Virus record (IMG/VR): IMGVR_UViG_3300042894_004034
Coordinates: 1-64,000 of that record
Direction: 5' to 3' (one strand)
Source of the DNA: a virus
Taxonomy: Duplodnaviria; Heunggongvirae; Uroviricota; Caudoviricetes
DNA length: 64,000 nucleotides
This document shows positions 9,256-63,834 of this stretch, one piece after another. How positions within the stretch are numbered: the first letter of the stretch is position 1; each line of letters begins with the position of its first letter. A program made the position numbers and the translations under genes. The notes under the pieces are model-generated. The model was not told the DNA's origin, did no database searches, and saw only the letters and a program-made list of their open reading frames with translations.

Positions 9256-9648
9256 ATGGCTTATTCAAATCAAGTAATCGATCACTACGAAAATCCACGC
9301 AATGTGGGCAGCTTTGAAAAAGGCGATGTAGACGTTGGCACAGGCATGGTAGGAGCACCTGCCTGCGGTGACGTAATGAAGTTACAAATAAAGGTTGACA
9401 ATGATACAGGTATTATTACAGATGCAAAATTTAAAACGTATGGCTGCGGATCGGCTATTGCGAGTTCGAGCCTCATTACCGAATGGGTCAAAGGAATGCA
9501 CATCGACAAAGCAGGAACAATCAAAAACTCCGACATTGCCGAAGAACTAGCATTACCTCCGGTCAAGATCCACTGTAGCATCCTGGCTGAAGATGCCATC
9601 AAGGCCGCAGTAGCAGATTACAAAAGCAAGCATGATCTCCTTAACTGA
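9256..9648 (+). CDS. iscU: Fe-S cluster assembly scaffold IscU
   Basis: GAPACGDVMKLQIKV, FKTYGCGSAIASSS, LPPVKIHCSILAEDAIKAA: the three conserved Cys motifs of IscU. SD AAAGGAA before ATG 9256. The table ORF starts at 9226. Confidence 0.85.
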   Translation: MAYSNQVIDHYENPRNVGSFEKGDVDVGTGMVGAPACGDVMKLQIKVDNDTGIITDAKFKTYGCGSAIASSSLITEWVKGMHIDKAGTIKNSDIAEELALPPVKIHCSILAEDAIKAAVADYKSKHDLLN

Positions 9649-9952
9649 TGATGCTGCTAGAAAAATAACTCAAACCATTCAACGTCGCGGCCATGGTATT
9701 GGTATTCGTGTTGGTGTAAGAACCACAGGTTGCTCAGGACTTGCTTATGTGTTGGAATATGTAGATACAGCACAACCTGAAGATATCTGCATTGACTGTG
9801 CCAACTGCAAATTGTTTGTTGATCCCAAAAGTTGTGCCTATCTTCAAGGACTTGAAGTAGACTACACAAGACAAGGTCTCAATGAAGGATTTGAATTTTC
9901 AAATCCCAACGAACGCGACCGCTGTGGTTGTGGAGAAAGTTTTAGAGTTTAA
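9632..9952 (+). CDS. iscA: A-type Fe-S carrier IscA/HesB
   Basis: C-terminal CGCGESF motif plus upstream Cys (TTGCSG). Confidence 0.8.
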   Translation: MISLTDDAARKITQTIQRRGHGIGIRVGVRTTGCSGLAYVLEYVDTAQPEDICIDCANCKLFVDPKSCAYLQGLEVDYTRQGLNEGFEFSNPNERDRCGCGESFRV

Positions 9953-19365: not shown

Positions 19366-20247
19366 ATGAAGAAATATGCTTTAGTAATGGCCCTAGCATT
19401 GGCCGCCTCCCTAGCACAAGCTGACGCCACCGTTTACGGTAAAGCTCGTGTGTACCAAGAAAACACCAAGACCGGCACCGCCGAAGGTGTAACCGCGTTG
19501 ACAAACGATTCCAGCCGTTTCGGTATCAAAGCCACAGAAGCACTTGCTGGCGGCATCACTGCTGGCGTTGTGCTTGAAACTGGCTACGGTGGCGACGCTC
19601 CTGCAGCAACCACACTGGGTGACCGCACTGCTGTTGTTGGCTTGTCTCACAAGTTGGGTTCCGTGGCCATGGGTCGTGACAAACACACCATTGCTCGCAC
19701 ACTTGACAACTATGACGCCATGGGCAATGCTTTTGGTTCCAGCACCGCAGTTATTCATGCTGCACAAGGTTCACGTTTGCAAAATGCAGTGTTCTTGACT
19801 GCCAAGCCTGTTGCTGGACTTTCTGCTACGTATGCAATTGCCAACAGTGAAGTTGCTGGTGGCACTACAGAATCACAAGCCAGCAGTGTTGAGTACACTG
19901 TAGGTGCTGTGAGCGCAACTGCTGCTCGTTTGACCACTGGTACCAACAGCTATTCAGGCATCGTTGGTGCTAGACTAGCTCTGGCATCTGGCACAAAAGT
20001 ATTTGCGATGTATTCTGAAGACAAAGTATCTGGTGCATCAACCACTGGTAAATCAGTTGGTGTTAACCAGGCTGTTGGTGCAGTGACTTTGCTTGCTGGC
20101 TACGGTGAGAATGACACTGTCAAGGCCTACAATGTTGGCGCATCTTATGCACTGAGCAAGAACACTTTGGTTCATGCACGTTATGTCAAAGAAGATTCTG
20201 CAACCAATGTACAGAAATTTGGTGCTGGTCTAGAAGTCAACTTCTAA
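19366..20247 (+). CDS. Gram-negative general porin (Neisseria/Burkholderia porin_4-like) with signal peptide
   Basis: Signal peptide MKKYALVMALALAASLAQA. TVYGKARVY...RFGIKA...LETGY N-terminal pattern. C-terminal ...GLEVNF with terminal Phe. SD AAGGAAAAA. Confidence 0.65.
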   Translation: MKKYALVMALALAASLAQADATVYGKARVYQENTKTGTAEGVTALTNDSSRFGIKATEALAGGITAGVVLETGYGGDAPAATTLGDRTAVVGLSHKLGSVAMGRDKHTIARTLDNYDAMGNAFGSSTAVIHAAQGSRLQNAVFLTAKPVAGLSATYAIANSEVAGGTTESQASSVEYTVGAVSATAARLTTGTNSYSGIVGARLALASGTKVFAMYSEDKVSGASTTGKSVGVNQAVGAVTLLAGYGENDTVKAYNVGASYALSKNTLVHARYVKEDSATNVQKFGAGLEVNF

Positions 20248-25169: not shown

Positions 25170-25973
25170 ATGAAGCGTATTTTAACTCTCTCTATCTTGG
25201 CTGCTGCTGTACTGGCAACAGGTTGTACTCGTATTGAAACTGGTGAAGTTGGTGTGCGAGTGGGTTTTGATAAACAGGTCCAGAGTGGTGAACTACTTCC
25301 TGGGTCTTTCAATCAATCAATCATTGGTGAGGTTCTTACGTTCCCCATCAAGGACGTAAACGTGGTGCTGGAGAATATGACTCCTGTTGCCCGAGACAAC
25401 AGCACCATGAAAGACTTTGATGCAGTGGTTGTTTACAACATCAACCCCCAGCAAGTAAGTGAATTGTATGCAACCAAGAACAAGAGCTTCCATACCGAGT
25501 TCAAAGGTGATACCTATGTGATGTACAATTACATTGTGCAGAATGCTCGTAACGCTATCTACAAGGCCGCTCGTAAGTATGAGGCCCTGGACATGGCAGA
25601 TGCCCGTAGCGACATGGAAACCTTTATCAAGGAAGAAATTGTTCGCAATCTTGCCGAAGAAAAACTGGACGGTAGTATCAGTATTAGTCAAGTGCTAATC
25701 CGTAATATTGTACCAGCTGACTCAGTTGTGGCCAGTGCTAACGAATTGGTCAAGGCCAAGAACGAGTTCAAGACCGAAGAAGTCAAAGTGGCCACTGCTC
25801 GCAAGCGTAATGAGTCAATGCAGGCCAACCCAATGGCAATTCCCTTGCTGATGGCCGAAGCACAAGCAGATGCCATGCGTAAGTTGCCAGATGCTATTGC
25901 CAACTTCAAAGGTCAAACCTTGGTCATCAACGGTGTTGTGACTCCCACAGTACAGACCAACAGCGCAAAATAA
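25170..25973 (+). CDS. SPFH/band-7 (stomatin/HflK-like) domain lipoprotein
   Basis: Lipobox LATGC. TGEVGVRVGFDK...GSFNQ...LTFPIKDVNV resembles the SPFH core. Confidence 0.5.
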   Translation: MKRILTLSILAAAVLATGCTRIETGEVGVRVGFDKQVQSGELLPGSFNQSIIGEVLTFPIKDVNVVLENMTPVARDNSTMKDFDAVVVYNINPQQVSELYATKNKSFHTEFKGDTYVMYNYIVQNARNAIYKAARKYEALDMADARSDMETFIKEEIVRNLAEEKLDGSISISQVLIRNIVPADSVVASANELVKAKNEFKTEEVKVATARKRNESMQANPMAIPLLMAEAQADAMRKLPDAIANFKGQTLVINGVVTPTVQTNSAK

Positions 25974-27199: not shown

Positions 27200-28612
27200 A
27201 TGTTTCTTAGTCTTATAACTCTAGCCGTGGCTCTGAGTCTCAGCGTTATTGCTGCCTACTACAGCATTGCCGGCCTGGCAGCTATATTTGCAGCCGCAGT
27301 GATACCCATCATGATCATGGGATCCATCCTGGAATTGGCCAAGGTGGTTGTGACCATATGGCTGCACGAGTACTGGCCACGAGCCAGATGGTTGATGAAA
27401 ATATACCTGGTGTCTGCTGTGATCATGCTAATGTTGATCACCAGCATGGGCATCTTTGGTTTCTTGTCAAAAGCACACAGTGATCAGAGTCTTGTGAGTG
27501 GCGACAGTCAGGCCAAGGTTTTGATCTTTGATGAAAAAATTCGAACATCCAAAGACAACATTGACGCCAACCGTCGGGCACTTAAACAGATGGATGAAGC
27601 TGTGGACCAGGTCATGGGTCGCAGTGCCGATGAGAAAGGTGCTGAGAAAGCTGTTCAGATCCGCAGATCTCAAAATAAAGAACGTGCTCGTCTCATAGCC
27701 GAAATTGACACTGAGCAGAAAACCGTGGCCAAGCTGAACGAAGAAGCAGCACCACTCCGAGCAGAATTTCGCAAGATCGAAGCTGAAGTAGGTCCAATCA
27801 AGTACATTGCAGCCTTGATCTACGGTGACAATCCTGATGCCAATGTTCTGGAACGTGCAGTACGCTGGGTGATCATGTTGTTGGTTTGTGTATTTGATCC
27901 ACTAGCTATCATGATGCTGTTGGCATCTACAGAAAGTCTCAAGTGGGCACGTGAAGGTCGCACCAGTCGAGTGCTTGAACCTGAGCCACCAGCATATGAA
28001 CCTGATGATGGTCCCATTGATCCAGAAGTACTGGAACAGTTACGTGCTAGAGCACAACAAGACTTGCCCACTGGCGAACTTGTGAGCCGGCAAGAACTAT
28101 TTCCTGAGAACCCGCATCCAGCCGGTTGGATGTTTGAGCCCGACCCACAGCCAGTGCCACAAGCAGCAGAAACAACACTGCCCGACGATGATGACTCCGA
28201 CGAAGAAAGTCCTGAACTCAAAGCAGCCATGACACAATGGAAGGCCGAGAATCCCACAGACACACTCAAACATCAACGAAAATTATTTGACTCTGGGCAG
28301 ATAGAAGAACTGCCTTGGCTAAAGTTTTTGCCATCACATGAACCTACATCTGGATTTGGAACACACCTGCCCGACACTGCTGTAAAAGGTGACAGCTATG
28401 TGTTGACCACAACGATTCCCAATGTGTTGTATAAATTCAACGGCTCCGGCTGGATCAAAGTTGACAATTCTATAAAAGACCAGTATACTTACGACATAGC
28501 ATACATAGATCACTTGATTGTTCAAATTGAAAAAGGATTGTATGATCCTGAGCTTTTGAGTGACAGTGAACGTGATCAAATCGAACAACGCATACAACAA
28601 CTTCCAGAATAA
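27200..28612 (+). CDS. multi-pass membrane protein with central coiled coil and acidic C-terminal domain
   Basis: Four hydrophobic helices at the N-terminus, Q/E/K-rich heptads, [11 protein letters not shown]. Confidence 0.45.
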
Positions 28613-28616
28613 AATA

Positions 28617-29828
28617 ATGATCAAAGAAACCCATTCCTCATGCAGCTTCTGTGGCAAAAATAAAGATGACGTGCGTAAACTTATTGTTGGCGAGTATGCA
28701 GGCATCTGCAACGAGTGCGTGGATTTTTGTCAGGGACTGTTGTCAACTGACGAACCAGTTGTGCCACCCGAACCACCATCAGCCAAACTAGATCCAATGA
28801 TCCTGAAGAACTATCTGGATCAGTATGTGATTGGTCAGGACGCTGCCAAGATCATGATCAGTGTGGCCATTGTGAATCATTACAAACGCATCAGCAAGAC
28901 CACAACTGATCCAGAAATGGACAAAGCCAACATCTTGATGTTAGGACCCACTGGCTCAGGCAAAACTTTGTTGGCCAAGTCAGTGGCACGTTATCTTGAT
29001 GTGCCATTTGCCATTGCTGATGCCACAAGTATCACTGAAGCAGGATATGTGGGTGACGATGTGGAAAGTCTAATCACTAGATTGTATGCTGCATCAGGCA
29101 ACGATGTGGCCAAGACACAGCAGGGTATTGTGTTTGTGGATGAGATTGACAAAATTGCTCGCAAGGGCGAAAGCTCGTCGATCACTAGAGATGTGTCAGG
29201 CGAAGGTGTACAACAGGCCCTGTTAAAAATGGTAGAAGGCACTGTGTGTCGTATTCCAGCAGCAGGTGGTGGCAGAAAGCATCCTGGTGGTGACATGATT
29301 GAAATTGACACTCGCAACATTTTGTTTATTGCTGGTGGCGCATTTGTGGGGCTAGATACCATAGTGAAAAATCGTGTGCAAGGAACCTCCATTGGCTTTA
29401 ACGCCAAGGTTGCAAAAACATCTATTGATACCGATCTGGACATGACCACACCAGATGACCTGGTGAAGTTTGGCATGATTCCGGAATTTGTTGGACGTTT
29501 TCCCAACTGGGTCAGTTTGAAACAACTCAGCAAAGCGGACCTGATTAGAATTCTCACAGAGATCAAGAATAACTATGTGGATCAGTATCGTTGGCTATTT
29601 TCTGAAGATGGCGTGGACTTGACGTTTACTGTGGCGGCACTGGATGAGATTGCGGAGCGCACCTTGGTCAATCAAACTGGTGCACGTGGTCTGCACAGCG
29701 AACTAGAACGTGTGCTGTTGCCGCACATGTTTCATCTTGCACAATACCGCCAGCAAGGCATTGCTGTGCTGTCAATTGACACGGATCAGGTGGCAGAACC
29801 CGAGGAACTCCGGGTTGTAAACAGCTAA
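28617..29828 (+). CDS. clpX: ATP-dependent Clp protease ATPase subunit ClpX
   Basis: N-terminal C4 zinc-binding domain (CSFCG...CNEC). Walker [13 protein letters not shown] pore loop ([10 protein letters not shown]). Walker [10 protein letters not shown]. Start taken at ATG 28617; the table ORF begins at 28560. Confidence 0.85.
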
Positions 29829-30173: not shown

Positions 30174-30620
30174 ATGACAAAAACTCTCACCCTTCGTAGT
30201 TTCGATATTCCTGCAATTCACAAGTTTGGAATTGGATTTGATAATCTATTTGACGACCTTATGCGTGTCACACAGCATCAAGCCACTACAAACTATCCTC
30301 CCCACAATGTGATCAAAACTGGCGACGACACTGTCACCATTGAAGTTGCTGTGGCTGGATTTGCTGAAGGAGAAATTGATATCAGTCTGGATAAACGTCA
30401 GTTGGTGATCTCTGGTGCCAAAGCAACAGAACAAGATCAAGCTCACGAATATCTACATCGTGGTATTTCACAACGCGACTTTAAACAAACATTCCCACTC
30501 AGTGAGCATGTGGAAGTAAACGGCGCAAGCATCAGCAATGGTATCTTGACTGTGTATCTGGAACGCAAAGTTCCTGAGTCAGCCAAGCCTAAAAGTATTG
30601 CAATCACATACGCAGTATAA
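30174..30620 (+). CDS. small heat-shock protein, Hsp20/IbpA family
   Basis: Alpha-crystallin domain pattern: IEVAVAGFAEGEIDISLDKRQLVISG ... GILTVYLER. SD AGGAGAAAAAC. Confidence 0.8.
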   Translation: MTKTLTLRSFDIPAIHKFGIGFDNLFDDLMRVTQHQATTNYPPHNVIKTGDDTVTIEVAVAGFAEGEIDISLDKRQLVISGAKATEQDQAHEYLHRGISQRDFKQTFPLSEHVEVNGASISNGILTVYLERKVPESAKPKSIAITYAV

Positions 30621-31819: not shown

Positions 31820-32176
31820 ATGCACATAATATTTGGAGAAGAGATTGGCCAAGCCGCCGCAGAAAAGTACATTGTTCTGGAACTGGATACATTTGAGATC
31901 AAAGGAAAAGAATCTCCAATGACTGCATACGCTCTTGTAGAGCATGTGCCATTACAGGACATGCCCACAATGAATCACTTTCATGATCTGCACACCAATC
32001 TCATGGTTGAATACCGCAAACGCAACTGGAAGTATTGTGAAGACGCCATGGAACATTTACAGGGCAAATGGAATGGAGACTTGGACACTTTTTATACCGA
32101 GTTGAACACCCGTATTCAACGGCTAAAGACCGAATCATTACCCGACCACTGGTCCGGAACTGTTCTTAAGAGCTAG
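31820..32176 (+). CDS. hypothetical protein
   Basis: ORF. Confidence 0.4.
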   Translation: MHIIFGEEIGQAAAEKYIVLELDTFEIKGKESPMTAYALVEHVPLQDMPTMNHFHDLHTNLMVEYRKRNWKYCEDAMEHLQGKWNGDLDTFYTELNTRIQRLKTESLPDHWSGTVLKS

Positions 32177-33430
32177 GTAATTCAATACCTGATCTATTTC
32201 TTTTTGTGAACGAGTATCGTTGATTCCCAAGATACGATCTAGTTCTTGAAATTTCTTCCAGTGTTTTCCGGTACAATGTTGATTGACAGTAATTATGGCT
32301 TGATTCATATTGTCAACATATTCTTGTACTATGCTGGCTTGCCAGGCAGCTGAAAAAAATCTCTGCTTGTTTCTCTCAGCAATTTTGTGCAGTTGATTCC
32401 ATAGTATGATTTTATCCGCTGGACACATGGCAGCAATCCTGGTGATTTCCTGAATCACAGCGGCCAATCTAGCCACCGGATCTGTTTCAAGATCATAAGA
32501 CTCATCAATAAGATCTCCAAAGGTCTCAAATCCGTAACTGCGCAAATATTCTAAGCTACCGGTAGTGGCAACCAGCATAAAGGGTTTGCCACACGCAATA
32601 GGGCGCAGCGCCTTTTCTGTGAGATGCAATCGTGAATCATCAAACAAGGTTTCCAGCACAATTTCCATGCCTGTTTGAGCATAATCCTGATTGTTGTAAT
32701 CGGCACTGGCATGAGAATTATGTGTGTTTGCAGGCAATACTGTTTCTAGATTTGCATTAGTGATTGCCAAATTGGAATTCTCAAACTTGTGTTGACTATA
32801 GTGCATGTCTGAATCCACAGGTGCAAAACTGGTGCGGCAATATTCCACTAAACCTGCTTTAATCAATTGATCAGCAAATGCTAGTCTATATTCTCTAGTA
32901 CCTGACCAAGCACGATTGTATATTAAAAAATCTTGCATAAACGTGGCGGTATTATATTGCAACACAGGATCATGCGCAGCATATCTAAACCAATCAGCTG
33001 CAATCACAGCATGACTCCAGTAGTACACAGGTAAGAATCCATGTTGGAGGTAGATATCTGCCTCTGAGCTATTTTTTTCCGAATGCACAAGCAAAACATA
33101 ATCATACAGACTGGTATGAATTGATCCTTTAAGGTGCCGTGATTTTTGGTACTCAATATATTTGTCTTCTAAATATAAAGAATTCGATTGGTGTTTGTCC
33201 ACACATAGTCGAGCAAAATCATCTAGATTCCAATAACAAAAATTCAGCGGCTCCTGGTCATGAAAAATTGTTGGTGGCCTGGTCATCATTTTAGACCAAT
33301 CTACGTATGAATATAACGGCGTTAGATCTTCAAGTTTTTTTGAGCCATGTGGCCAAAAGCGATAAATTGTTATATCATGATTGACAACGTCATGCAAAAA
33401 GTTGTATAATCTATCTAAAGGAACTGACAT
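32138..33430 (-). CDS. hypothetical enzyme, paralogue family member A (shared C-terminal module with 48180..49205 and 49186..50175)
   Basis: C-terminal block KPFMLVATTGSLEYLRSYGFETFGDLIDESYDL aligns with the other two paralogues. Confidence 0.5.
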   Translation of the reverse strand: MSVPLDRLYNFLHDVVNHDITIYRFWPHGSKKLEDLTPLYSYVDWSKMMTRPPTIFHDQEPLNFCYWNLDDFARLCVDKHQSNSLYLEDKYIEYQKSRHLKGSIHTSLYDYVLLVHSEKNSSEADIYLQHGFLPVYYWSHAVIAADWFRYAAHDPVLQYNTATFMQDFLIYNRAWSGTREYRLAFADQLIKAGLVEYCRTSFAPVDSDMHYSQHKFENSNLAITNANLETVLPANTHNSHASADYNNQDYAQTGMEIVLETLFDDSRLHLTEKALRPIACGKPFMLVATTGSLEYLRSYGFETFGDLIDESYDLETDPVARLAAVIQEITRIAAMCPADKIILWNQLHKIAERNKQRFFSAAWQASIVQEYVDNMNQAIITVNQHCTGKHWKKFQELDRILGINDTRSQKEIDQVLNYLALKNSSGPVVG

Positions 33431-38015: not shown

Positions 38016-39011
38016 ATGAAAAAATTATTAGCTATTCTATTATCAGTTGTTGCAGTTTCTGCAACAGCACAAGAAGTTACAGGAGCCGGTGCAACATTTC
38101 CGGCTCCGTTGTATTCAAAGTGGGCTAGTGACTACAACCGCGTGACCAACATCAAAATCAACTATCAGTCAGTTGGCTCAGGTGCAGGTATCAAACAGAT
38201 TGAAGCCAAGACAGTCACGTTTGGTGCAAGTGATATGCCACTCACAGATGATCGACTAAAAGATCTGGGACTATTCCAGTTCCCCACAGCAATTGGCGGC
38301 GTGGTTCCTGTGATCAACGTCAAGGGCATCGAACCTGGACAAATGAAACTCACAGGCACATTGCTTGCTGATATCTTTCTAGGCAAAATTACTCGCTGGG
38401 ATGACGCTGCTATCCGGGCACTAAACCCCTCATTAGCATTACCTGACCAAGCAATCACTGTGGTTCGCAGAGCAGATGGATCAGGAACTACATTTATCTG
38501 GACCAACTATCTCAGCAAGGTATCTAAAGAATTCAAAGACACCATTGGTGAAGGCACAGCAGTCAACTGGAAAGTTGGAGCAGGCGGCAAAGGCAACGAA
38601 GGTGTTGCTGCCATGGTTAGACAACTTCCAGGAACACTGGGCTATGTTGAATTTGCTTATGTAAAACAAACCAAGATGAACTGGGTCAATGTACAGAACG
38701 CTGCTGGCACCTGGGTGGCACCCACAGAAGAATCATTCAAGGCAGCTGCCGCAAATGCTGACTGGAACCGAACATACTTTCAGATTCTAACCAATCAAGC
38801 AGGCAAAGAAGCATGGCCCATCTCAGGTGCTACATTTATCCTAGTGTATTTGAAACCCGAAGATGCTGCTAAATCCAAAACTGCTATTGCTTTCTTTGAC
38901 TGGGCATTTGCCAGTGGAGATCGAGCAGCAGATGACCTAGACTATGTGGCATTGCCTTTAGCAGTGAAGAACAAGATTCGTGCAGACTGGAAACGGTTGG
39001 CACTACACTAA
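38016..39011 (+). CDS. pstS: phosphate ABC transporter substrate-binding protein PstS
   Basis: Signal peptide. TGAGATFPAPLY...SVGSGAGIKQ...GASDMPL...RADGSGTTF PstS hallmarks. SD AAGGAG. Confidence 0.85.
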   Translation: MKKLLAILLSVVAVSATAQEVTGAGATFPAPLYSKWASDYNRVTNIKINYQSVGSGAGIKQIEAKTVTFGASDMPLTDDRLKDLGLFQFPTAIGGVVPVINVKGIEPGQMKLTGTLLADIFLGKITRWDDAAIRALNPSLALPDQAITVVRRADGSGTTFIWTNYLSKVSKEFKDTIGEGTAVNWKVGAGGKGNEGVAAMVRQLPGTLGYVEFAYVKQTKMNWVNVQNAAGTWVAPTEESFKAAAANADWNRTYFQILTNQAGKEAWPISGATFILVYLKPEDAAKSKTAIAFFDWAFASGDRAADDLDYVALPLAVKNKIRADWKRLALH

Positions 39012-46035: not shown

Positions 46036-46608
46036 ATGGCCACAGAAACTGAAAATCTAGATCAATCACACACCCAACGGCTGGCCGACTCAGGCATGCT
46101 GGTACTCATGGGTGAAATAGACCATGACAGTATCAAACCAGTGATAGAGTGGATTCTGCATGAAAACTATGTGGTCAAGAAAAAGCGCAAAGAACTCCTG
46201 CTGATGATCTGCTCAGAAGGTGGAGACATGAGTGCTGCCTTTGCACTAATTGATGTCATGCGCAGCAGTGCTATTGCGGTCAAAACAGTGGGACTGGGAC
46301 AGATTGCCAGTGCAGGACTCTTGATATTTCTAGCAGGTTCCCCGGGACGTAGAATCCTTACTCCCAACACCAGTATCCTGAGTCACCAGTTCAGCTGGGG
46401 CAGCGATGGCAAGGTGCATGAATTGTTTGCTACCATGCGTGAATTTGAGCTTACACAAAAGCGCATGATACAGCACTACCGGGACTGTACCGGGCTTGAT
46501 GATGAAACTGTTCGGGCCAAGCTGTTGCCACCACATGATGTTTGGCTTGATGCTACTCAGGCTCTGGAACTGCACATCTGCGATGCAATATCCACACTGG
46601 GACGTTAA
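46036..46608 (+). CDS. ClpP-family (S14) serine protease, second divergent copy (possible prohead/maturation protease)
   Basis: GQIASAGLL (Ser) and LSHQF (His) positioned as in the ClpP catalytic triad. 190 aa. Confidence 0.6.
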   Translation: MATETENLDQSHTQRLADSGMLVLMGEIDHDSIKPVIEWILHENYVVKKKRKELLLMICSEGGDMSAAFALIDVMRSSAIAVKTVGLGQIASAGLLIFLAGSPGRRILTPNTSILSHQFSWGSDGKVHELFATMREFELTQKRMIQHYRDCTGLDDETVRAKLLPPHDVWLDATQALELHICDAISTLGR

Positions 46609-48179: not shown

Positions 48180-49205
48180 ATGACAGAACCTATAGCAATA
48201 GAATTCAGCGGCGATTGCTGGAATAATCCTACTCAATTTCAACAACAACTTAATCAGCACCCACCTGGAGAACCACTGGTCTTGGACCTACGTGGAGAGG
48301 GTCCTAGCTTGTCGGCACTGGGCATAACCAAATCAATCAACGCCTGGCTCATGGCTAGGAAACAAACTCCTGATACTGTGCAGTTAATAGGATGGAGCAA
48401 TCCTGTAGAATTTGTGCCATACCAGCGTGTGAAATGCAGCAAGATAAGTCATTTTTTCTTCATGGTTCAGGATTATTGGCAACACACAGAACCCACACTA
48501 GAACAACAACTAGAATATCAACAACCTTTTGGATTGTTTGTTGGAAGAATTACACTCAGCAGAGCTGCTATTCTGTATCAAGCACATAGCACTAGTCTTT
48601 TTGCCAGCATGATGAATCACATACAACCATTTCCTTGGAAACGAGAGATAGGTGATGTTCACGATTTAGAAAACATATCAGACTGGTTATCACTGTATGA
48701 TCAGGCCCGGATGTTTGCTTGGTATGATCAACGGATTGTGACCAGTGTGGACAACAAATCAGTAAGAGATCAATTTGCTACTCCTGCATCATCAGCAGAA
48801 ACCAATACTAGTTTGTTGCAGCACTATCACAATTTTGCTGTGGAGATAGTGTGTGAAACTTACACCTTAGGAAATACATTCTTTCCTACTGAAAAAACCA
48901 TACGTCCTATCATGGCTGCCAAACCCATGTTGGTATATGCACCACGTTACTATCTAGCAAGATTGCGCAGCATAGGGTTCCAAACATATCACAGCATCTG
49001 GGATGAAAGTTATGACCTGTATGAAGGTGCCGATCGTTGGCGACTTATGCAACAAAGTATGCGCACCTTGCTGGAGTGCGGCCGTGCAGAACAAAAACGA
49101 ATATTAAGTTTTGCACATGAGATAGCTCAATACAATCGGCAACATCTTGCGGACATTTGTAACAATCAAACCAATATACTAGACCATGATTATTCAAAGA
49201 TTTGA
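48180..49205 (+). CDS. hypothetical enzyme, paralogue family member B
   Basis: C-terminal EKTIRPIMAAKPMLVYAPRYYLARLRSIGFQTYHSIWDESYDLY aligns with A and C. Confidence 0.5.
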   Translation: MTEPIAIEFSGDCWNNPTQFQQQLNQHPPGEPLVLDLRGEGPSLSALGITKSINAWLMARKQTPDTVQLIGWSNPVEFVPYQRVKCSKISHFFFMVQDYWQHTEPTLEQQLEYQQPFGLFVGRITLSRAAILYQAHSTSLFASMMNHIQPFPWKREIGDVHDLENISDWLSLYDQARMFAWYDQRIVTSVDNKSVRDQFATPASSAETNTSLLQHYHNFAVEIVCETYTLGNTFFPTEKTIRPIMAAKPMLVYAPRYYLARLRSIGFQTYHSIWDESYDLYEGADRWRLMQQSMRTLLECGRAEQKRILSFAHEIAQYNRQHLADICNNQTNILDHDYSKI

Positions 49206-50175
49206 CAACGGCTGGGGCTTGCAGTTTCCACTCAAGAAGTTTGAAACACACATAGTTGATCGCATGCTCACGCACATATCTGCCGACTCTTCTAGAACTG
49301 TTGTTATCAATTCTGTATGGTATACCAAACAATATCATGAACAAGTACTGGAATGGTTGCGTAACAATCCAGTTGATTGTATTGTGCTGATTGCCATGTT
49401 AGATGCGGCTATTCCTGCTGCTGATTGGTATAGTGAGTTTGAATGTGAAATATCGACTGTGGGATATTATGCAGGACCACATGCTGTGGATTTTTGTGCA
49501 GTGTTCGTGGATGAATTTTTAAATCCACCATCATTGGATATTCTAATGGATCCGTCTCTGATTGATACAGCCTACATGTGTTTGAATCGCAAGCCACACT
49601 GGCATAGACAAAAGCTGTATCAAAGACTTGAAGCCAGTAACTTGTTGGACCGTGGTATAGTAAGCATGGGAGGCACTGGTTCAGCAGTAAGATCTTTGCC
49701 AACTGATTGCGAGCCGGACAATCTTGCACCCAACGCTGCTGCCACACATTACGGCGTACCCAATGATATAGTGAGTCTGGGCCACATGCAAAATTGGCAA
49801 CGACACCTGGTAAACATTGTGACTGAAACGTTTTTCGATATCAATCAGACTGGATTTGTAAGTGAAAAAATCTACAAACCCATAGTAGGATGTAGACCGT
49901 TTTTGGTGTATGATCCTGATGGCGGCACCCGCTGGCTAACAGATCGAGGGTTTGAACCGTATGTTGCAGACTTTGCGGATATCACCGACTTGAACCTTGC
50001 TGAGCCAGCGGCCATGCACCGATTCCTTGGAGTGTTGTGTGACCAGACACCTGAGTACTGGCAAGCCAAATTTCTTGCTCTTAGTGAAAAAATACTATAC
50101 AATAAACATCACTTCACTGATTATGTTCATAGTCAGAAACAAAAAATCCAAAAAGGAATATCATGCCAAATCTAG
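49186..50175 (+). CDS. hypothetical enzyme, paralogue family member C
   Basis: C-terminal [43 protein letters not shown] aligns with A and B. Confidence 0.5.
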
Positions 50176-50753
50176 TACCAATTGTTGTTGAATCCACAAG
50201 CAAAGGCGAACGCAGCTACGACATCTACAGTCGCTTGCTTCGAGAACGCATTATCATGCTGGACTCAGATGTAGACGAACATAGTGCCAGTTTGATTGTG
50301 GCACAAATGTTGTTTCTTGAAAGTGAGAATCCTGACAAAGATATCAGTTTGTATATCAACTCACCCGGCGGCAGCGTCACAGCAGGCATGGCCATCTATG
50401 ATACCCTGCAGTTTATCAAGCCTGATGTGCAGACCATTGTGATGGGACAGGCCTGCTCAATGGGATCATTGCTGGCTAGTTCTGGTGCTAAAGGCAAGCG
50501 ATTTATCTTGCCCAACGCTCGTCACATGATTCATCAACCTTCGGGCGGCTCACGTGGACAGGCCACAGACATGCTGATCCAGGTCACAGAAATTCTCAAG
50601 ATGAAACAGGTGCTGACTGAGATCTATGTCAAACATAACTCAGCAGGCAAAACATTTGAAGAATTCACAGCAGACATGGAGCGCGACAATTTCATGAGTG
50701 CGCAAGAAGCCGTAGACTACGGACTTGCTGACAAGATACTGACCACTAGATAA
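50163..50753 (+). CDS. clpP: ATP-dependent Clp protease proteolytic subunit ClpP
   Basis: Canonical [10 protein letters not shown] (Ser), MIHQPSGG (His), downstream Asp. 196 aa. Confidence 0.85.
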
Positions 50754-51895
50754 TGTTTTTCCATATCAGCCAGCAGCCACAAGAAAATTACCCATGCCAG
50801 TGGCAACTGAGTAGTTTTGCAATCAGTACCGATCCCGGATGGAAACAGTTTGCTATTGGTCCTGTGCAAATTTTGTACAAAGGCTACGCAGACGCAGGAC
50901 CTTTAGAATCGCTACTTGGTCAGATAATGTTTCAGAGCACGCCGCATCTGACTGGCAATTTTTGTGCGCTGGTTGTTGTAAATGACACACTAACAATTCA
51001 GTCTGATCGCTATCGCGGATTCCCAATTTATATCAATGACGCCGGCATAAACAATTTGATTGCAACTGACCGCACTGCCTGGACTGACAGCTTGATCACA
51101 GTACATGCAGATCTTGCAGTGACCGAACACAAGTTTGATGTGATTGGCAGCATCGATACTGGTTATTCAACTGTTGATGATATTGATATCTTGCTGTGTA
51201 AAAAAATTCAACAGTATGCGCAACAGGTAACAGAGCCAATACGTGTGTTTTTAAGTGGTGGCGTAGATACATTACTGGTGTATAGTTATCTTTGCCGATA
51301 TCAGATTCCGCATGAATTGGTCTGGGCAGAGCACTGTGACCATGATGCATTTTGGTTGGCAAACCATGCTGATATTTGCAAAAATTGGGGATATCGACAA
51401 ATACATCACTGGCAAGAACCGTGTGTGTTGGCATCAGGTGCACCCGGCGACGAATTTATGCTACGCAGCCCTGTCACTGCCAATCAGTACCTGATGCATC
51501 ATGGCTCTAGTGTTTTGCAATTGCTAATGGAACATCCCGATTGCTTACATCGAGAATATTTCAAGTTACAAAAGCATGTGAAAGTATTTTCTGATCAGAT
51601 GTGTAACTATCAACCTGCCACAGATCAAGATTTTAATTGGTCAGTGTGCAATACCGTTGTGAATGATTGGCAACACTGGCATATTGGAAACACCCTGACC
51701 TGGACTCCTCTGAGAGATCTTGAATTGTTTAAGTTGTGCCTGCGCTTGCCTTTAGAACTGGCAAAAGGTCAAATCATGAACAGCAGTGTTAGCCGCACAC
51801 TAATCGAACAAAATGTTCCAGGACTGACCTCAGCACTGAGCAATCAAAAAAATACTGGGAATGTGATGAGAAATCTACAGCAGTTATTAAGCTAA
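50753..51895 (+). CDS. asparagine-synthetase-B-like PP-loop ATP pyrophosphatase lacking the glutaminase Cys
   Basis: PP-loop FLSGGVDT (cf. SGGxDS). N-terminal DRYRGFPIYIND resembles the AsnB RDRxGxKPLYY region. No Cys2. Confidence 0.45.
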   Translation: MFFHISQQPQENYPCQWQLSSFAISTDPGWKQFAIGPVQILYKGYADAGPLESLLGQIMFQSTPHLTGNFCALVVVNDTLTIQSDRYRGFPIYINDAGINNLIATDRTAWTDSLITVHADLAVTEHKFDVIGSIDTGYSTVDDIDILLCKKIQQYAQQVTEPIRVFLSGGVDTLLVYSYLCRYQIPHELVWAEHCDHDAFWLANHADICKNWGYRQIHHWQEPCVLASGAPGDEFMLRSPVTANQYLMHHGSSVLQLLMEHPDCLHREYFKLQKHVKVFSDQMCNYQPATDQDFNWSVCNTVVNDWQHWHIGNTLTWTPLRDLELFKLCLRLPLELAKGQIMNSSVSRTLIEQNVPGLTSALSNQKNTGNVMRNLQQLLS

Positions 51896-53011
51896 CATAT
51901 CTGCTGTAAATTTGCAATAGTCCAGGATGTTGATTTTCTTCACACGGTCCATGTCTTCCACAAACTTTTTAAACTTTTGATGCAACACATGATCATAGTT
52001 GTTGGTCGCCAATGCATCGACTATTGATTGCAGTGCATTCACCGCATTTTGTTGTTGTCCTATTTCAATAGCAGTTGATTTAATTTTTTCAATAGATCGA
52101 GTTAAACTAGCAACAATCTCTGCTCGATATTGATCTGGCACTACCAGGGTTCCCAAGTAAGCATCGCTCGGGACACCAAAAGAAACCACACTGGGCCATT
52201 TGGCCAGCAGCATATCTAACACCTCTTCTATATAAATGTAATTGTATGCTGAGGAGGTAATGTTCACTCGCAAGTCCACATGAGAGTATTTTTGGATTTC
52301 TTGAAAGTTCTGATGCACTGTATCCCATTCAGTACCATAGCGTATGTACTCTGCAGGTCTCCCCACAGCGTCAATGCTGAACACCACAGTGATAGGATGT
52401 TGATAGTTTTTGATCCAGTCCCATCGAATCATGCTGCCATTTGTGAACATGGTAATGTTGGCGGACAAATGTTCAGCAGCCCAGTCTAAAAATTTCAAAC
52501 AATTTTTGTCATAAAACGGTTCACCGCCTAGCAATACCACATTACGGATTCGATCAGCGAACGGTAACAAAAAATCAAAATTGCTGATGCTTTGACTGTT
52601 GACATCTTTGATATCTATTATTCCAGCCTGATGATGAAACTGCGCCACTCGAGTGCTGGCCTCAGGCCAACAAGTTTGACAAGCAAAGTTACACACAGCC
52701 CCTGGACGAATTTCCAAAGTAATATCGTTGCCGCTGTATTCTGCATAGGACCGAGCACCGTTGAGACGAGTGCTATCACCCCTGCCTGTTTTTTCTATAG
52801 AATGGCAATGCTCACAACCGCTGGGCCAAGAATCTTGTGCCAGTTGATTTTTAATTCTGATAATCTGATCAGATTGGTGCCATGTGTCAAGATTGACCGA
52901 ACCAAGTTGATTTTGTGCTGTCCATGAAGAATCATATTTCCAAACACAACATGGTTTCACCACTTGGTCATAAGAAATAGCAACCCCGTGGTCTAGAAAT
53001 TTGCAATGCAT
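51887..53011 (-). CDS. radical SAM enzyme
   Basis: CNFACQTC (Cx3Cx2C) radical SAM cluster motif plus an extra N-terminal Cys pair (CEHCH). Start taken at ATG 53011; the table ORF runs on to 53140 through the promoter repeat. Confidence 0.6.
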   Translation of the reverse strand: MHCKFLDHGVAISYDQVVKPCCVWKYDSSWTAQNQLGSVNLDTWHQSDQIIRIKNQLAQDSWPSGCEHCHSIEKTGRGDSTRLNGARSYAEYSGNDITLEIRPGAVCNFACQTCWPEASTRVAQFHHQAGIIDIKDVNSQSISNFDFLLPFADRIRNVVLLGGEPFYDKNCLKFLDWAAEHLSANITMFTNGSMIRWDWIKNYQHPITVVFSIDAVGRPAEYIRYGTEWDTVHQNFQEIQKYSHVDLRVNITSSAYNYIYIEEVLDMLLAKWPSVVSFGVPSDAYLGTLVVPDQYRAEIVASLTRSIEKIKSTAIEIGQQQNAVNALQSIVDALATNNYDHVLHQKFKKFVEDMDRVKKINILDYCKFTADMLA

Positions 53012-53077: not shown

Positions 53078-53106
53078 TTGACCAATATTACCCGAAGTGC
53101 TATAAT
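53078..53106 (+). promoter_or_regulatory. conserved sigma70-type promoter, family copy 5
   Basis: TTGACCAATATTACCCGAAGTGCTATAATACACACA. Confidence 0.6.
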
Positions 53107-53131
53107 ACACACAGAGCAACAAAGGACTAAC

Positions 53132-54358
53132 ATGATCCAACTTTGGGCATATCTAGCAATCAGCCTGGTGTTGACAGCCTGCGGCGGCGGCTCAGACAAT
53201 GGTCAGCCCAGTTCAGATCAGAATCAGATAACTCCGACTGTTGCATTTACTAGAGTGCTAAATCAAATTACTGAGAGAAACAGAGTTGAAACCTATGCTG
53301 TAGGTGATCTCAATGGCGACGGACTAGATGATGTAGTAGTTGGTGGGTGGACAGGCACAGGCACGTCATACCTTGCTGTGCTGATTCAAAATGCCAACGG
53401 TTCACTAACTGATCGAACTGTTCAGCTGGCAGGAACTAATCAGTACTCCGGTAGCCAGCGCATGTTCATACTGGACGTGGACAACGATGGATTTGCGGAT
53501 ATTTGGCTGCCCGGATTCAATGACTGCACGGGTTGTTCTGCCCAAAGTGTCATGCTTTGGGGCAATGCGAATGGTATCTTTACACGGCAAACTTTTGCTA
53601 CTGCCATAGATAGTCATGGAGCAGGTGTTGCTGATCTCAACGGCGATGGACGTAAGGATTTTCTTATTCGCGGGGTCTGGGACGGAACCACAAACAACTA
53701 CGGATATTATTTGAACAATGGCAATAGAGCGTTTACTTTTGTAACAAACTCGCAATTAAATGGTGCAGCAACGTGTGCAGTAGCCAAAGATCCAGTCTCG
53801 GGTCATATTGCAGTGGTTCAAGGCAACAACAACCAAGTAGCAGGATTTAGTCACAGTATCAATATTTTTGACGCCAACCTAAATTTAATCACGCAAATCG
53901 GTGTGGCCAGTCAAGATCCTGCAGTCAATGACTTGATCAACAGCATCAGTGTTGATGTCAACGCAGATGGATTAATGGATTTTGTGCTGGTGTTTAATCC
54001 TTTAGCAGGCGCAGGCGGCAGGAGAGAAGTTTGGCTCAATCGCGGCGCAGACAACTTTTCATATGCATACACAATTGACAGTGGCTACAGCAACGGCTAT
54101 GACATTCAAGCCCTAGCCTATCAAGGGTCCAGTTACTATCATTTCAATGCTGCCAACGGAGATGGCAATTTGTACCGACTCCAAGGTGGTCAATTTCTAG
54201 GGTACCTGCGAGAAAGCTTTTTGACCATGGCACGTGCCTTGGGAGCCAACCCCGGAGTCAGAGACTGGAGTGTGTGGTCTTCCACTGTTTATCGAGGCGC
54301 CTCAGGCATGTACATGCTGCAACATGTGACCGGGGGCTACTACACCCAAAAACTTTGA
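53132..54358 (+). CDS. FG-GAP/VCBS-repeat lipoprotein
   Basis: Lipobox LVLTAC. Repeated DxNGDG Ca-binding-type motifs: DLNGDGLDDVVVGGW, DVDNDGFADIWL, DLNGDGRKDFLI, DVNADGLMDFVLV. Start at ATG 53132; the table gives TTG 53078, which is the -35 element. Confidence 0.55.
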   Translation: MIQLWAYLAISLVLTACGGGSDNGQPSSDQNQITPTVAFTRVLNQITERNRVETYAVGDLNGDGLDDVVVGGWTGTGTSYLAVLIQNANGSLTDRTVQLAGTNQYSGSQRMFILDVDNDGFADIWLPGFNDCTGCSAQSVMLWGNANGIFTRQTFATAIDSHGAGVADLNGDGRKDFLIRGVWDGTTNNYGYYLNNGNRAFTFVTNSQLNGAATCAVAKDPVSGHIAVVQGNNNQVAGFSHSINIFDANLNLITQIGVASQDPAVNDLINSISVDVNADGLMDFVLVFNPLAGAGGRREVWLNRGADNFSYAYTIDSGYSNGYDIQALAYQGSSYYHFNAANGDGNLYRLQGGQFLGYLRESFLTMARALGANPGVRDWSVWSSTVYRGASGMYMLQHVTGGYYTQKL

Positions 54359-55786: not shown

Positions 55787-56218
55787 TTACTTATAGATGT
55801 AATTTATGGTGTTGGAATTTTCTCTCAATTCCACAGCACCGTTCTTGAGATGGAAACGTCGAGCCATTGGGGTCTTGGGACTCAAGGTCACATAGGTCTG
55901 TATTTCAGGAAACTCGGATCGGATAGACTGTTGTGCTTCTTGAATCAGGCTACGGCCAGCGCCAGCAGTGTAACTCCAGATGGTGTAAAACACAGCAATG
56001 GTAGCACTCTCCACAATGTTGACCATGTCCTCTACCGCAGCAGGAATAACAGACAAGAACTTCACACAGGTCACTGCTTGAGTTTGATCACCACTTTTGA
56101 GCATGTAGATTCTGCTGTTGGCGTTGACTCGGTCGGTCACCGGAATTTCTGGTCGCACAGGGTCGTCCAGGATCAGTTGGTTCAGGTCTTCAGTAATTGT
56201 AGTAATTGTGTATAACAT
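55787..56218 (-). CDS. GNAT-family acetyltransferase (tentative)
   Basis: AVFYTIWSYTAGAGRSLI resembles GNAT motif A (Q/RxxGxG/A). Confidence 0.4.
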   Translation of the reverse strand: MLYTITTITEDLNQLILDDPVRPEIPVTDRVNANSRIYMLKSGDQTQAVTCVKFLSVIPAAVEDMVNIVESATIAVFYTIWSYTAGAGRSLIQEAQQSIRSEFPEIQTYVTLSPKTPMARRFHLKNGAVELRENSNTINYIYK

Positions 56219-63184: not shown

Positions 63185-63412
63185 ATGAGTACACTAATAT
63201 TCAACGGTCGTCCTTGGACAGTGTTTGACGCTCACAACAAACTACACCGTCAGTGGTTTGCAGAATTTCAACGAGACCGTACCTGGGGACATTGTCCTGT
63301 GCGATTCATGTCCGATGACCGTGAAGGCGATTTACTGACCATGATCCAACGCAGACTGATTGACTACTATCTTGCCAAGGAATTTGGCCTAGCAAAGAAA
63401 TCACGAGCATGA
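63185..63412 (+). CDS. hypothetical small protein
   Basis: ORF. Confidence 0.4.
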   Translation: MSTLIFNGRPWTVFDAHNKLHRQWFAEFQRDRTWGHCPVRFMSDDREGDLLTMIQRRLIDYYLAKEFGLAKKSRA

Positions 63413-63834
63413 ACAATTCTCAACTGTATTTTGCCTACGGCATGAATACCAATCATATTGAAATGTCCTTTCGATGCCCGGATGCTTTTGCCCTGGGCCA
63501 TGCTCGACTGATTGACCATGCTTTTAGATTTGCTGTTCATGCGGATGTAGTGCCATGTGCTGGCAGTTATGTGGATGGAGTGTTATGGAGAATCACCGAC
63601 CGAGATCTCGACAGCCTGGACATACTGGAAGGTTACCCCACCTACTATGGCCGGGATAGTTTGAGAGTGAGTATAGAATCAAGAATTGTTCAAGCCGTTT
63701 GCTACAGTATGCAGCCCGGGCGATCTGACTCCCCTCCCAGTGCCGGTTACATGAACATGGTGCTGGAAGGATATGCTCAGCACCATGTGCCAACTGAACA
63801 GTTGTGGAATTCGGTCGAGCTGGTTGACCAATAA
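63409..63834 (+). CDS. gamma-glutamyl cyclotransferase (AIG2/GGCT)-like protein
   Basis: N-terminal YFAYGMNTN matches the YFAYGSNM GGCT-fold signature. Confidence 0.5.
   Translation: MNNSQLYFAYGMNTNHIEMSFRCPDAFALGHARLIDHAFRFAVHADVVPCAGSYVDGVLWRITDRDLDSLDILEGYPTYYGRDSLRVSIESRIVQAVCYSMQPGRSDSPPSAGYMNMVLEGYAQHHVPTEQLWNSVELVDQ

Follow-up and report, generated by a model that had tools for sequence, protein, structure and literature searches.

A conserved phage gene pair for an AsnB-like protein and a radical SAM enzyme, a candidate two-enzyme tailoring cassette

Introduction

The scaffold of asparagine synthetase B (AsnB) has been turned to other uses. Escherichia coli AsnB has a nucleophilic cysteine, Cys2. 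Beta-lactam synthetase and the carbapenam synthetase CarA keep the two-domain fold and the PP-loop of AsnB but lack the N-terminal nucleophile, TsnB9 is a glutaminase-less AsnB homologue, and the lasso-peptide cyclases (McjC type) likewise reuse the scaffold for ATP-dependent amide formation without glutamine hydrolysis. Another route to an amide, known in phages, pairs the radical S-adenosylmethionine (SAM) enzyme QueE with the PP-loop ATPase QueC. QueC acts in 7-deazaguanine pathways, where it uses free ammonia to convert a carboxylate to an amide and then to a nitrile. Here we analyze a pair of adjacent genes, one for an AsnB-like PP-loop protein (ASNL) and one for a radical SAM enzyme (rSAM), in a 64,000-nucleotide (nt) stretch of tailed-phage DNA (Caudoviricetes; IMG/VR record IMGVR_UViG_3300042894_004034, positions 1 to 64,000), which we call the window.

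The source of the window is a large phage-like genome. A preliminary description of the DNA had placed a convergent gene pair at 50753-53011 and had offered two ideas about it, tailoring of a ribosomally synthesized and posttranslationally modified peptide (RiPP) and hypermodification of DNA bases. Both open reading frames (ORFs) are at those coordinates and are convergent, and they form a real pair, because ASNL adjoins rSAM at 27 of the 27 rSAM loci that have enough flanking sequence. Neither of the two ideas about their product was borne out by the neighboring genes, as described below. The preliminary description also overlooked ClpP, which is the most constant neighbor of the pair, and the sugar-nucleotide context that recurs in related loci. 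We found no description in the literature of the ASNL-rSAM pair.

Results

ASNL has an AsnB-like fold without the glutaminase nucleophile

The features of ASNL are as follows, with residues numbered in amino acids (aa).

50753-51895, + strand: ASNL, a predicted AsnB-like, glutaminase-less PP-loop amide synthetase of 380 aa, assigned by fold and profile comparison
51254-51271, + strand: PP-loop SGGVDT (aa 168-173), an ATP pyrophosphatase signature, aligned to SGGLDS of AsnB
51662-51682, + strand: family-specific motif NDWQHWH (aa 304-310), found by conservation across homologues

ASNL had no match in the Pfam (E ≤ 0.1), PHROG, or PADLOC libraries, and NCBIfam returned only a spurious match to SrfG (13 bits). 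The Asn_synthase, GATase_7, and NCBIfam AsnB models were not matched at cut-off. Nothing in the PDB was significant by phmmer or by a profile hmmsearch, and a weak profile match to CarA fell at its PP-loop (SGGLDS). In a search of 1.84 billion representatives, the ASNL profile also detected no AsnB protein at E ≤ 0.001. With nothing significant from these sequence-only searches, the relation to AsnB was established by a fold search and by hhalign only.

An AlphaFold2 model of ASNL made with 40 homologues had a predicted local distance difference test score (pLDDT) of 90.9 and a predicted template modeling score of 0.89. Foldseek matched this model to beta-lactam synthetase, human ASNS, CarA, TsnB9, and E. 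coli AsnB with E values of 1e-10 to 1e-7, a probability of 1.0, and alignments of 450 to 540 columns. The shared architecture is a two-domain one, with an N-terminal nucleophile (Ntn)-type N-domain and a PP-loop ATP pyrophosphatase domain. Beta-lactam synthetase (1M1Z and 1JGT) and CarA (1Q15) were the best structural matches (E of 1.7e-10 and 7.6e-9; probability of 1.0). However, ASNL is only 10 to 13% identical to them, the template modeling (TM) scores are 0.44 to 0.48, and ASNL has 380 aa against about 500. Furthermore, the neighborhood lacks genes of the clavulanate and carbapenem pathways, and ASNL has an MFF N terminus and an NDxQHWH motif of its own. E. coli AsnB (1CT9) and human ASNS (6GQ3) matched the fold with E values of 6.7e-8 and 1.5e-8, and TsnB9 (7YLZ) did so with an E value of 1.1e-8 and a TM score of 0.53. 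Compared with AsnB, ASNL is about 170 residues shorter and keeps the PP-loop, but it has an invariant phenylalanine where AsnB has Cys2. ASNL is also much shorter than the lasso-peptide cyclases, none of which surfaced in the PDB fold search. Among the viral structures in BFVD there was no member of the ASNL family. The best matches there were ordinary viral "asparagine synthases" (TM score of ≤0.56 and 12% identity).

In an hhalign comparison, a profile of 45 diverse ASNL members aligned with residues 118 to 252 of E. coli AsnB at an E value of 1.2e-4 over 120 columns, which run from the last part of the N-domain into the PP-loop. It paired GNFC with GMFA, DRYRGFPIY with RDHLGIIPLY, and SGGVDT with SGGLDS. 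G170 and D172 of the PP-loop were invariant in the 45 homologues, down to 24% identity. ASNL begins with MFF, of which F2 and F3 were invariant in the same set (M1-F2-F3 is invariant or nearly so). Because residue 2 is Phe and not Cys, ASNL is without the glutaminase nucleophile. Therefore, the preliminary description was right about the AsnB-like architecture, the SGGVDT PP-loop, and the missing N-terminal Cys.

The invariant residues of ASNL are F2, F3, D27, W30, K43, G44, G170, D172, G229, G232, D233, R238, H310, P319, and K366. Six of these (G170, D172, G229, G232, D233, and K366) can be matched by eye to the SGGxDS, GxDE, and C-terminal Lys of AsnB, and K366 may be equivalent to the conserved Lys of beta-lactam synthetase and CarA. 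In the NDxQHWH motif, which served as the search pattern for collecting ASNL members, H310 is invariant and D305, Q307, H308, and W309 are nearly so. This motif may bind substrate or metal. Within the N-domain, N69, R88, and N101 are nearly invariant. Judging from these retained polar residues, together with D27 and K43, the N-domain probably still binds a ligand.

QueC was tried as an identity for ASNL and rejected, because ASNL has two domains, no C-terminal Cys cluster, and no match to the NCBIfam QueC model. ASNL is also not of the tRNA-modification type, a plain form of PP-loop enzyme that the preliminary description had considered. We class ASNL as a new family-level branch of the known AsnB superfamily, in a new conserved partnership.

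rSAM belongs to NF033640 and has an N-terminal cysteine-rich region

The features of rSAM are as follows.

51887-53011, - strand: radical SAM enzyme, 374 aa from MHCKF (NF033640, 197 bits)
52670-52693, - strand: CX3CX2C motif, CNFACQTC (aa 107-114), the predicted SAM-cleaving [4Fe-4S] site, with invariant Cys
52805-53005, - strand: N-terminal Cys-rich region (C3, C21, C22, C66, and C69), presumed to hold an auxiliary Fe-S cluster ("N-terminal twitch"), with conserved Cys

We placed the start of rSAM at 53011 because its orthologues all begin with M-x-C-K-F. The protein matched NF033640 (twitch domain-containing radical SAM protein) at 197.2 bits, above the cut-off of 170, over model positions 12 to 394 of 398. 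The Pfam Radical_SAM model scored 27.3 bits, just below its cut-off of 29.5. C107, C111, and C114 of the CX3CX2C motif were invariant among orthologues. C21, C22, C66, and C69 were also invariant, C3 was nearly so, and C171 was conserved. This bears out the earlier assignment of a radical SAM motif accompanied by extra Cys. We know of no assigned or biochemical function for NF033640, and we found none described in the literature. The window rSAM has no Pfam SPASM match; distant paralogues in locus L127 match SPASM at their N termini.

The AlphaFold2 model of rSAM had a pLDDT of 87.9, and its C-terminal 80 residues form a helical bundle. Foldseek matched only the core, to anSME, BlsE, SkfB, viperin, SuiB, MoaA, and DesII, with TM scores of 0.3 to 0.42. 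For anSME (4K37), BlsE (7VOB), viperin (6Q2P), and MoaA (1TV7), a partial TIM-barrel core is held in common with rSAM (E of 1.6e-6 to 4e-4, TM scores of 0.33 to 0.42, and identities of 12 to 19%). However, the auxiliary clusters of these enzymes are C-terminal, whereas the Cys-rich domain of rSAM is N-terminal. Because only the generic radical SAM core matches, no characterized function can be transferred to rSAM.

A housekeeping identity was considered in the form of NrdG. The score was 15 bits for TIGR02491 (cut-off of 126) and 13 bits for TIGR02495 (cut-off of 131), and NrdG was rejected. The ribonucleotide reductase encoded in the window is of class I. The NF033640-type gene is the only radical SAM gene in the window. 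Overall, the enzyme classes that we assign to ASNL and rSAM are very likely to be correct.

ASNL and rSAM stay together in different gene orders and contexts

In the window, ASNL and rSAM are convergent and their 3' ends overlap by 9 nt. We gathered related loci in three ways: with ASNL as bait in IMG/VR, with rSAM as bait, and with ASNL as bait in Joint Genome Institute (JGI) metagenomes. The first search yielded 69 unique loci, with an NF033640-type rSAM no more than four genes from ASNL in 35 and immediately downstream in 27. The rSAM bait found an orthologue at ≥42% identity in 29 loci. ASNL was adjacent in 27 of these, and in the other 2 the contig ends on the side where ASNL would be expected. 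ASNL also lay within 150 nt of all 23 unique rSAM orthologues with flanks. The JGI set consisted of the 80 closest ASNL relatives, mostly from freshwater lakes, and rSAM adjoined ASNL in 56 of the 64 that had enough downstream sequence. Of the JGI loci with both flanks, 36 had ClpP and rSAM, 3 had ClpP only, 5 had rSAM only, and 2 had neither.

The arrangement of the two genes varies. Of 27 unique pairs, 19 are convergent. In 7 others the genes are codirectional and rSAM comes second, in most cases overlapping ASNL by 4 nt, and in the last one rSAM is upstream. The pair also occurs in at least four genomic contexts, which are a jumbo-phage type with ClpP, the end of a heptose cluster, T4-like marine contigs, and others. 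On the T4-like marine contigs, it has a gene for a large acidic protein on one side and genes resembling gp32 and UvsX on the other. The distances among ASNL proteins correlate with those among their rSAM partners (Mantel r = 0.37), and only 2 of 2,000 permutations reached this value. Because the adjacency survives both gene-order rearrangement and a change of genomic context, ASNL and rSAM are likely to be functionally coupled. Every rSAM orthologue adjoins ASNL, but the reverse is untrue. This suggests that ASNL is the core step and rSAM a frequent accessory.

A contrary explanation is that there is no joint function. ASNL would then be a stand-alone, ammonia-dependent, asparagine synthetase-like gene, rSAM would be unrelated, and their adjacency would be inherited. 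In its favor, roughly half of the unique viral ASNL loci lack an rSAM among the nearest four genes, and a motif scan detected no rSAM orthologue on several large ASNL contigs (149 to 252 kb). However, it fits poorly with the presence of ASNL next to rSAM at 27 of 27 rSAM loci, which span three gene orders and several unrelated contexts. ASNL itself also differs from an asparagine synthetase. It does not match Pfam Asn_synthase, it is 170 residues shorter than AsnB, and it has invariant motifs of its own. Despite the loss of the Cys, D27 and K43 of its N-domain remain invariant and N69, R88, and N101 nearly so. Therefore, we regard the absence of any joint function as very unlikely.

In loci L149, L158, L152, and L156 the gene order of the window is kept (a 551-aa protein, a pair of paralogues, ClpP, and ASNL) and rSAM is missing. 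The ASNL proteins of these contigs are only about 30% identical to that of the window, so divergence of ASNL may track loss of its partner. Directly beside the rSAM start is a gene for an FG-GAP/VCBS-repeat protein with a lipoprotein-like signal (…LVLTACGG…) at 53078-54358. L149, one of the loci without rSAM, has a gene of the same family two to three genes downstream from its ASNL.

Both proteins belong to large families

ASNL has 889 homologues at 90% clustering, and all of them are called "hypothetical." At 50% identity, the family comprises 375 clusters among the 1.84 billion representatives, and nearly all are 350 to 410 aa long. JGI metagenomes hold about 400 ASNL relatives. There are 701 rSAM homologues at 90% clustering. 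The window rSAM is a member of a phage subclade of NF033640, with about 700 clusters at 90% identity, that is obligately next to ASNL.

So far, ASNL has been found only on phage-like contigs. Among cultured phages (INPHARED; 50,697 records), the locus had no match by megablast and two ASNL variants had none by tblastn. The rSAM relatives in cultured phages, namely, KVP40-like Vibrio phages and RsoM2USA, are only 22 to 27% identical. A motif scan of GTDB species representatives detected no relative of ASNL or rSAM, but its patterns are specific to the close subfamily and limited in sensitivity, and we make no claim that cellular genomes strictly lack such genes.

ClpP is the most constant neighbor of ASNL in one clade

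The window encodes the following Clp proteins.

50163-50753, + strand: canonical ClpP, 196 aa (CLP_protease, 270 bits; NF001368, 309 bits against a cut-off of 249)
46036-46608: divergent ClpP paralogue, the second ClpP of the phage
28560-29828: ClpX

The ClpP stop codon overlaps the ASNL start codon as TAATG. In the JGI set, ClpP was directly upstream of ASNL in 48 of 58 loci. Among the 69 unique IMG/VR loci, 25 had ClpP no more than four genes from ASNL, and in 22 it was the gene just upstream. The conserved stop-start overlap makes a functional tie between ClpP and ASNL possible. However, the linkage is found only in a single clade whose entire neighborhood is syntenic, and it may therefore reflect descent. 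We rejected ClpP as the main partner of ASNL because its linkage is limited to that clade, whereas the rSAM link persists outside it.

The same evidence bears on the proposal that ASNL partners ClpXP and not rSAM. It would tag or process proteins for ClpX, ClpP1, and ClpP2, with a logic like that of Pup ligase. The TAATG overlap is kept in about 80% of close relatives, and the phage encodes ClpX and two ClpP paralogues. However, the association belongs to a single jumbo-phage clade with a conserved order (lipoprotein genes, ClpP-like gene, gene for the 551-aa protein, and ClpP), which common descent could explain. Many ASNL lineages have no nearby ClpP, whereas the rSAM link survives rearrangement, and we know of no precedent for protein ligases with the AsnB fold. 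A role with ClpXP is very unlikely and is the least probable of the explanations that we weighed.

The 551-aa protein is encoded by a conserved minus-strand gene between the two ClpP genes. It belongs to phrog_3560 and is 31% identical to a protein of Synechococcus phage ACG-2014f.

Neighboring genes give partial clues to the substrate

Some loci place the pair among genes for sugar nucleotides. In L031 (903-8920), L024, and L044, the pair closes a tightly packed, overlapping, same-strand sugar cluster. This cluster encodes a sugar C-methyltransferase, a GT9 heptosyltransferase, a PfkB kinase, a cupin, a cytidylyltransferase-like protein, and a short-chain dehydrogenase/reductase epimerase, and ASNL, rSAM, and a GGACT gene follow directly. 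Genes for a kinase, a cytidylyltransferase, and a cupin are directly upstream of ASNL in L125 and L131. In L056 and L137, a 2Fe-2S ferredoxin gene is directly upstream, and L056 also has an RmlC-like epimerase nearby. On the side of ASNL where rSAM lies, GGACT was at a distance of one to four genes in 8 of the 69 unique loci and in 9 loci from metagenomes. A copy is also present in the window.

63409-63834, + strand: GGACT/AIG2-like gamma-glutamyl cyclotransferase homologue (PF06094, 47 bits), 10 kb downstream of the pair

It is 62% identical to the copy in L012. The window also contains a UDP-glucose/GDP-mannose dehydrogenase-like gene and a GT2 glycosyltransferase gene.

Divergent ASNL genes lie beside or within arrays of three to five rSAM genes and methyltransferase-like genes. 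The array in L127 (28-12686) has ASNL, a 600-aa rSAM, a Pfs-like nucleosidase, a methyltransferase, and MetK. The Pfs-like nucleosidase and MetK are support functions for radical SAM chemistry. More broadly, the viral contigs L127, L166 (3683-12010), L162, L072, L082, L087, and L089 carry arrays of three to seven rSAM paralogues, several of them with an N-terminal SPASM match. Such multi-rSAM arrays, with a MetK, a Pfs-like nucleosidase, and a ferredoxin of their own, suggest that radical SAM gene clusters in some phages are self-sufficient.

These arrays are relevant to the idea that the pair modifies a peptide or protein in the manner of a RiPP system. In such a scheme, ASNL would be a lasso-type cyclase or a C-terminal amidase, rSAM would act as a SPASM/twitch enzyme that cross-links or epimerizes, and ClpP would do the processing. 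An arrangement of several rSAM genes with a methyltransferase gene is associated with RiPP clusters, and distant ASNL genes do occur among four to five clustered rSAM genes and genes like those of methyltransferases. Glutaminase-less AsnB homologues include the lasso cyclases and the thiostrepton amidase, and the best fold matches of rSAM include the peptide-modifying enzymes anSME, SkfB, and SuiB. JGI annotators labeled many homologues "AslB-like." The stop-start overlap of ClpP and ASNL and the position of ClpP upstream in 48 of 58 close relatives would also fit.

However, a precursor peptide was not apparent. No small ORF beside the pair was conserved across contexts, and the flanking small ORFs varied by locus. 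One recurrent small ORF, c54, was rejected as a candidate because it is hydrophobic and occurs in only two closely related loci (L160 and L166). Neither a transglutaminase-like leader protease nor PqqD or another RiPP recognition element (RRE) was seen among the scanned neighbors, so that the precursor, protease, and RRE that accompany lasso-peptide cyclases were all missing from view. Furthermore, the pair has no ClpP in many lineages, the ClpP in question is of the canonical housekeeping type and is partnered by the phage ClpX in the window, and the presumed auxiliary cluster of rSAM is N-terminal, unlike those of characterized RiPP maturases. We therefore consider a RiPP-like role, as raised in the preliminary description, to be decidedly unlikely.

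Hypermodification of a nucleotide or of a phage DNA base was the other idea in that description. Here, the pair would follow the logic of QueE and QueC and help the phage to evade restriction. The QueE/QueC system is itself a phage precedent for a radical SAM enzyme together with a PP-loop amide former. On the T4-like contigs, the pair sits between packaging and replication genes (TerL-like by eye, gp32-like, and UvsX-like), and the window has a DNA methylase gene and other genes of DNA metabolism. The rSAM core also gave weak, partial matches to enzymes of nucleotide chemistry. viperin_w_prok scored 43 bits over aa 106-258 only, PADLOC pVip scored 44 bits over the same stretch, and MoaA and QueE scored 28 and 19 bits. 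However, these scores are far under the cut-offs (180 bits for viperin_w_prok, 284 for MoaA, and 260 for QueE) and reflect only the generic core, and we rejected viperin/pVip, MoaA, and QueE as identities for rSAM. ASNL has the two-domain AsnB fold and not the QueC fold, and QueC-like proteins appeared only at E ≥ 1.6e-3. The pair is not orthologous to QueE and QueC. We scanned about 55 window ORFs for families and found no hallmark of DNA modification among them (thymidylate synthase-like hydroxymethylase, base kinase, DpdA/TGT, FolE, or QueD), which is weak evidence because the 64 kb in view is part of a genome of probably more than 200 kb. Hypermodification is an unlikely role for the pair in our estimate.

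Other genes of the window

The preliminary description had also noted two iron-sulfur cluster genes, and both are present.

9226/9256-9648, + strand: IscU (NifU_N, 182 bits)
9632-9952, + strand: IscA (Fe-S_biosyn, 66 bits)

These genes share 17 nt (9632-9648). A supply of clusters from the phage IscU and IscA to an rSAM with two predicted clusters is plausible.

Upstream of ClpP are two overlapping paralogous genes, with a third elsewhere in the window.

48180-49205 and 49186-50175, + strand: paralogue pair upstream of ClpP, overlapping genes (341 aa and 329 aa), with no family match
32138-33430, - strand: third paralogue, by sequence paralogy

The three proteins have a "..TEK..P....P.lvY" region in common, and none of them matched Pfam, NCBIfam, or PHROGs, or the PDB when searched by profile. 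From the TEK motif, the pair is possibly glycosyltransferase-like, but we do not use this as evidence. The paralogue pair is found at the same position in L033, L149, and L158.

Replication and repair genes in the window encode a Toprim primase, a DnaB-like helicase, a class I ribonucleotide reductase (large and small chains), an ATP-dependent DNA ligase, and UvdE. The helicase shares 46% identity with its counterpart in Pseudomonas jumbo phage PA5oct and 45% with the one in Agrobacterium phage Atu_ph07. ClpX, the DNA methylase, and many host-like proteins are also encoded. The host-like genes at 19366-20247, 25170-25973, 30174-30620, and 38016-39011 are for a Gram-negative porin, an SPFH/Band 7 protein, an Hsp20 protein, and a PstS-like phosphate-binding protein. 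A small protein encoded at 55787-56218 (- strand) weakly matches the C-terminal domain of malonyl-CoA decarboxylase (PF05292, 27.6 bits) and is conserved in the related loci L002 and L003. No tRNA genes were found in the window. A scan for promoters and terminators across 45.8 to 54.6 kb gave counts no higher than the shuffle expectation.

Discussion

The explanation that we favor, although we hold it tentatively and at slightly less than even chances, is that ASNL and rSAM are a conserved, phage-borne, two-enzyme tailoring cassette whose members build one modified molecule together. In our judgment the substrate is most likely a small molecule. That it is a sugar or sugar nucleotide, destined for a phage-directed glycan, is possible but a good deal less assured. 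The recurrent sugar clusters point in that direction.

From the fold, motifs, rSAM family, and linkage described above, we infer an adenylation and amide chemistry, an order of steps, and a class of substrate. By analogy with the superfamily, ASNL would bind ATP at its PP-loop and adenylate a carboxylate of the substrate, giving an acyl-AMP and pyrophosphate. An amine would then resolve this intermediate, and it could be free ammonia, a second small amine, or an intramolecular amine. The product would be an amide or a lactam, made without glutamine hydrolysis. rSAM would reductively cleave SAM, and the resulting 5'-deoxyadenosyl radical would remove a hydrogen atom either from that substrate or from the amide formed by ASNL. 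This step might lead to oxidation, epimerization, dehydration, decarboxylation, or C-C bond chemistry.

Several points weigh against a tailoring cassette of this kind. About half of the 69 unique viral ASNL loci are without rSAM within four genes, and the motif scan detected no rSAM orthologue on several ASNL contigs of 95 to 252 kb. The cassette explanation does not account for ClpP, which is the strongest single neighbor in the clade of the window. The sugar context occurs in a minority of loci, and accessory genes of phages often lie together in islands even when their functions are unrelated. Sugars of the ADP-heptose type have no carboxylate, so AsnB-type chemistry does not follow directly from a heptose context. 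The two paralogous window genes that might have been called glycosyltransferase-like have no family or structure match. The core of rSAM is as close to peptide-modifying SPASM enzymes (anSME, SkfB, and SuiB) as it is to BlsE, viperin, MoaA, and DesII.

A bolder form of the cassette explanation is that the two enzymes make a previously unknown phage-specific molecule, through an enzyme family with no cellular counterpart. This molecule might be a hypermodified nucleotide or DNA base, or an amide-bearing sugar on virions or DNA. We think that this is doubtful. If it were true, the larger rSAM arrays that contain ASNL on contigs of marine phages would count as genuine phage biosynthetic gene clusters, devoted to complex radical chemistry.

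At present, we regard the pair as a clear and testable opening onto phage chemistry and not as a demonstrated surprise. The ASNL family is outside all four libraries scanned (Pfam, NCBIfam, PHROGs, and PADLOC). ASNL and rSAM are a compact two-gene module, and identifying its product would assign a function to both families. The module would add a new reaction to the amide-forming enzymes built on the AsnB scaffold. It could also reveal a new phage-made modification of a sugar, nucleotide, or peptide, used for host recognition or for evasion of defenses.

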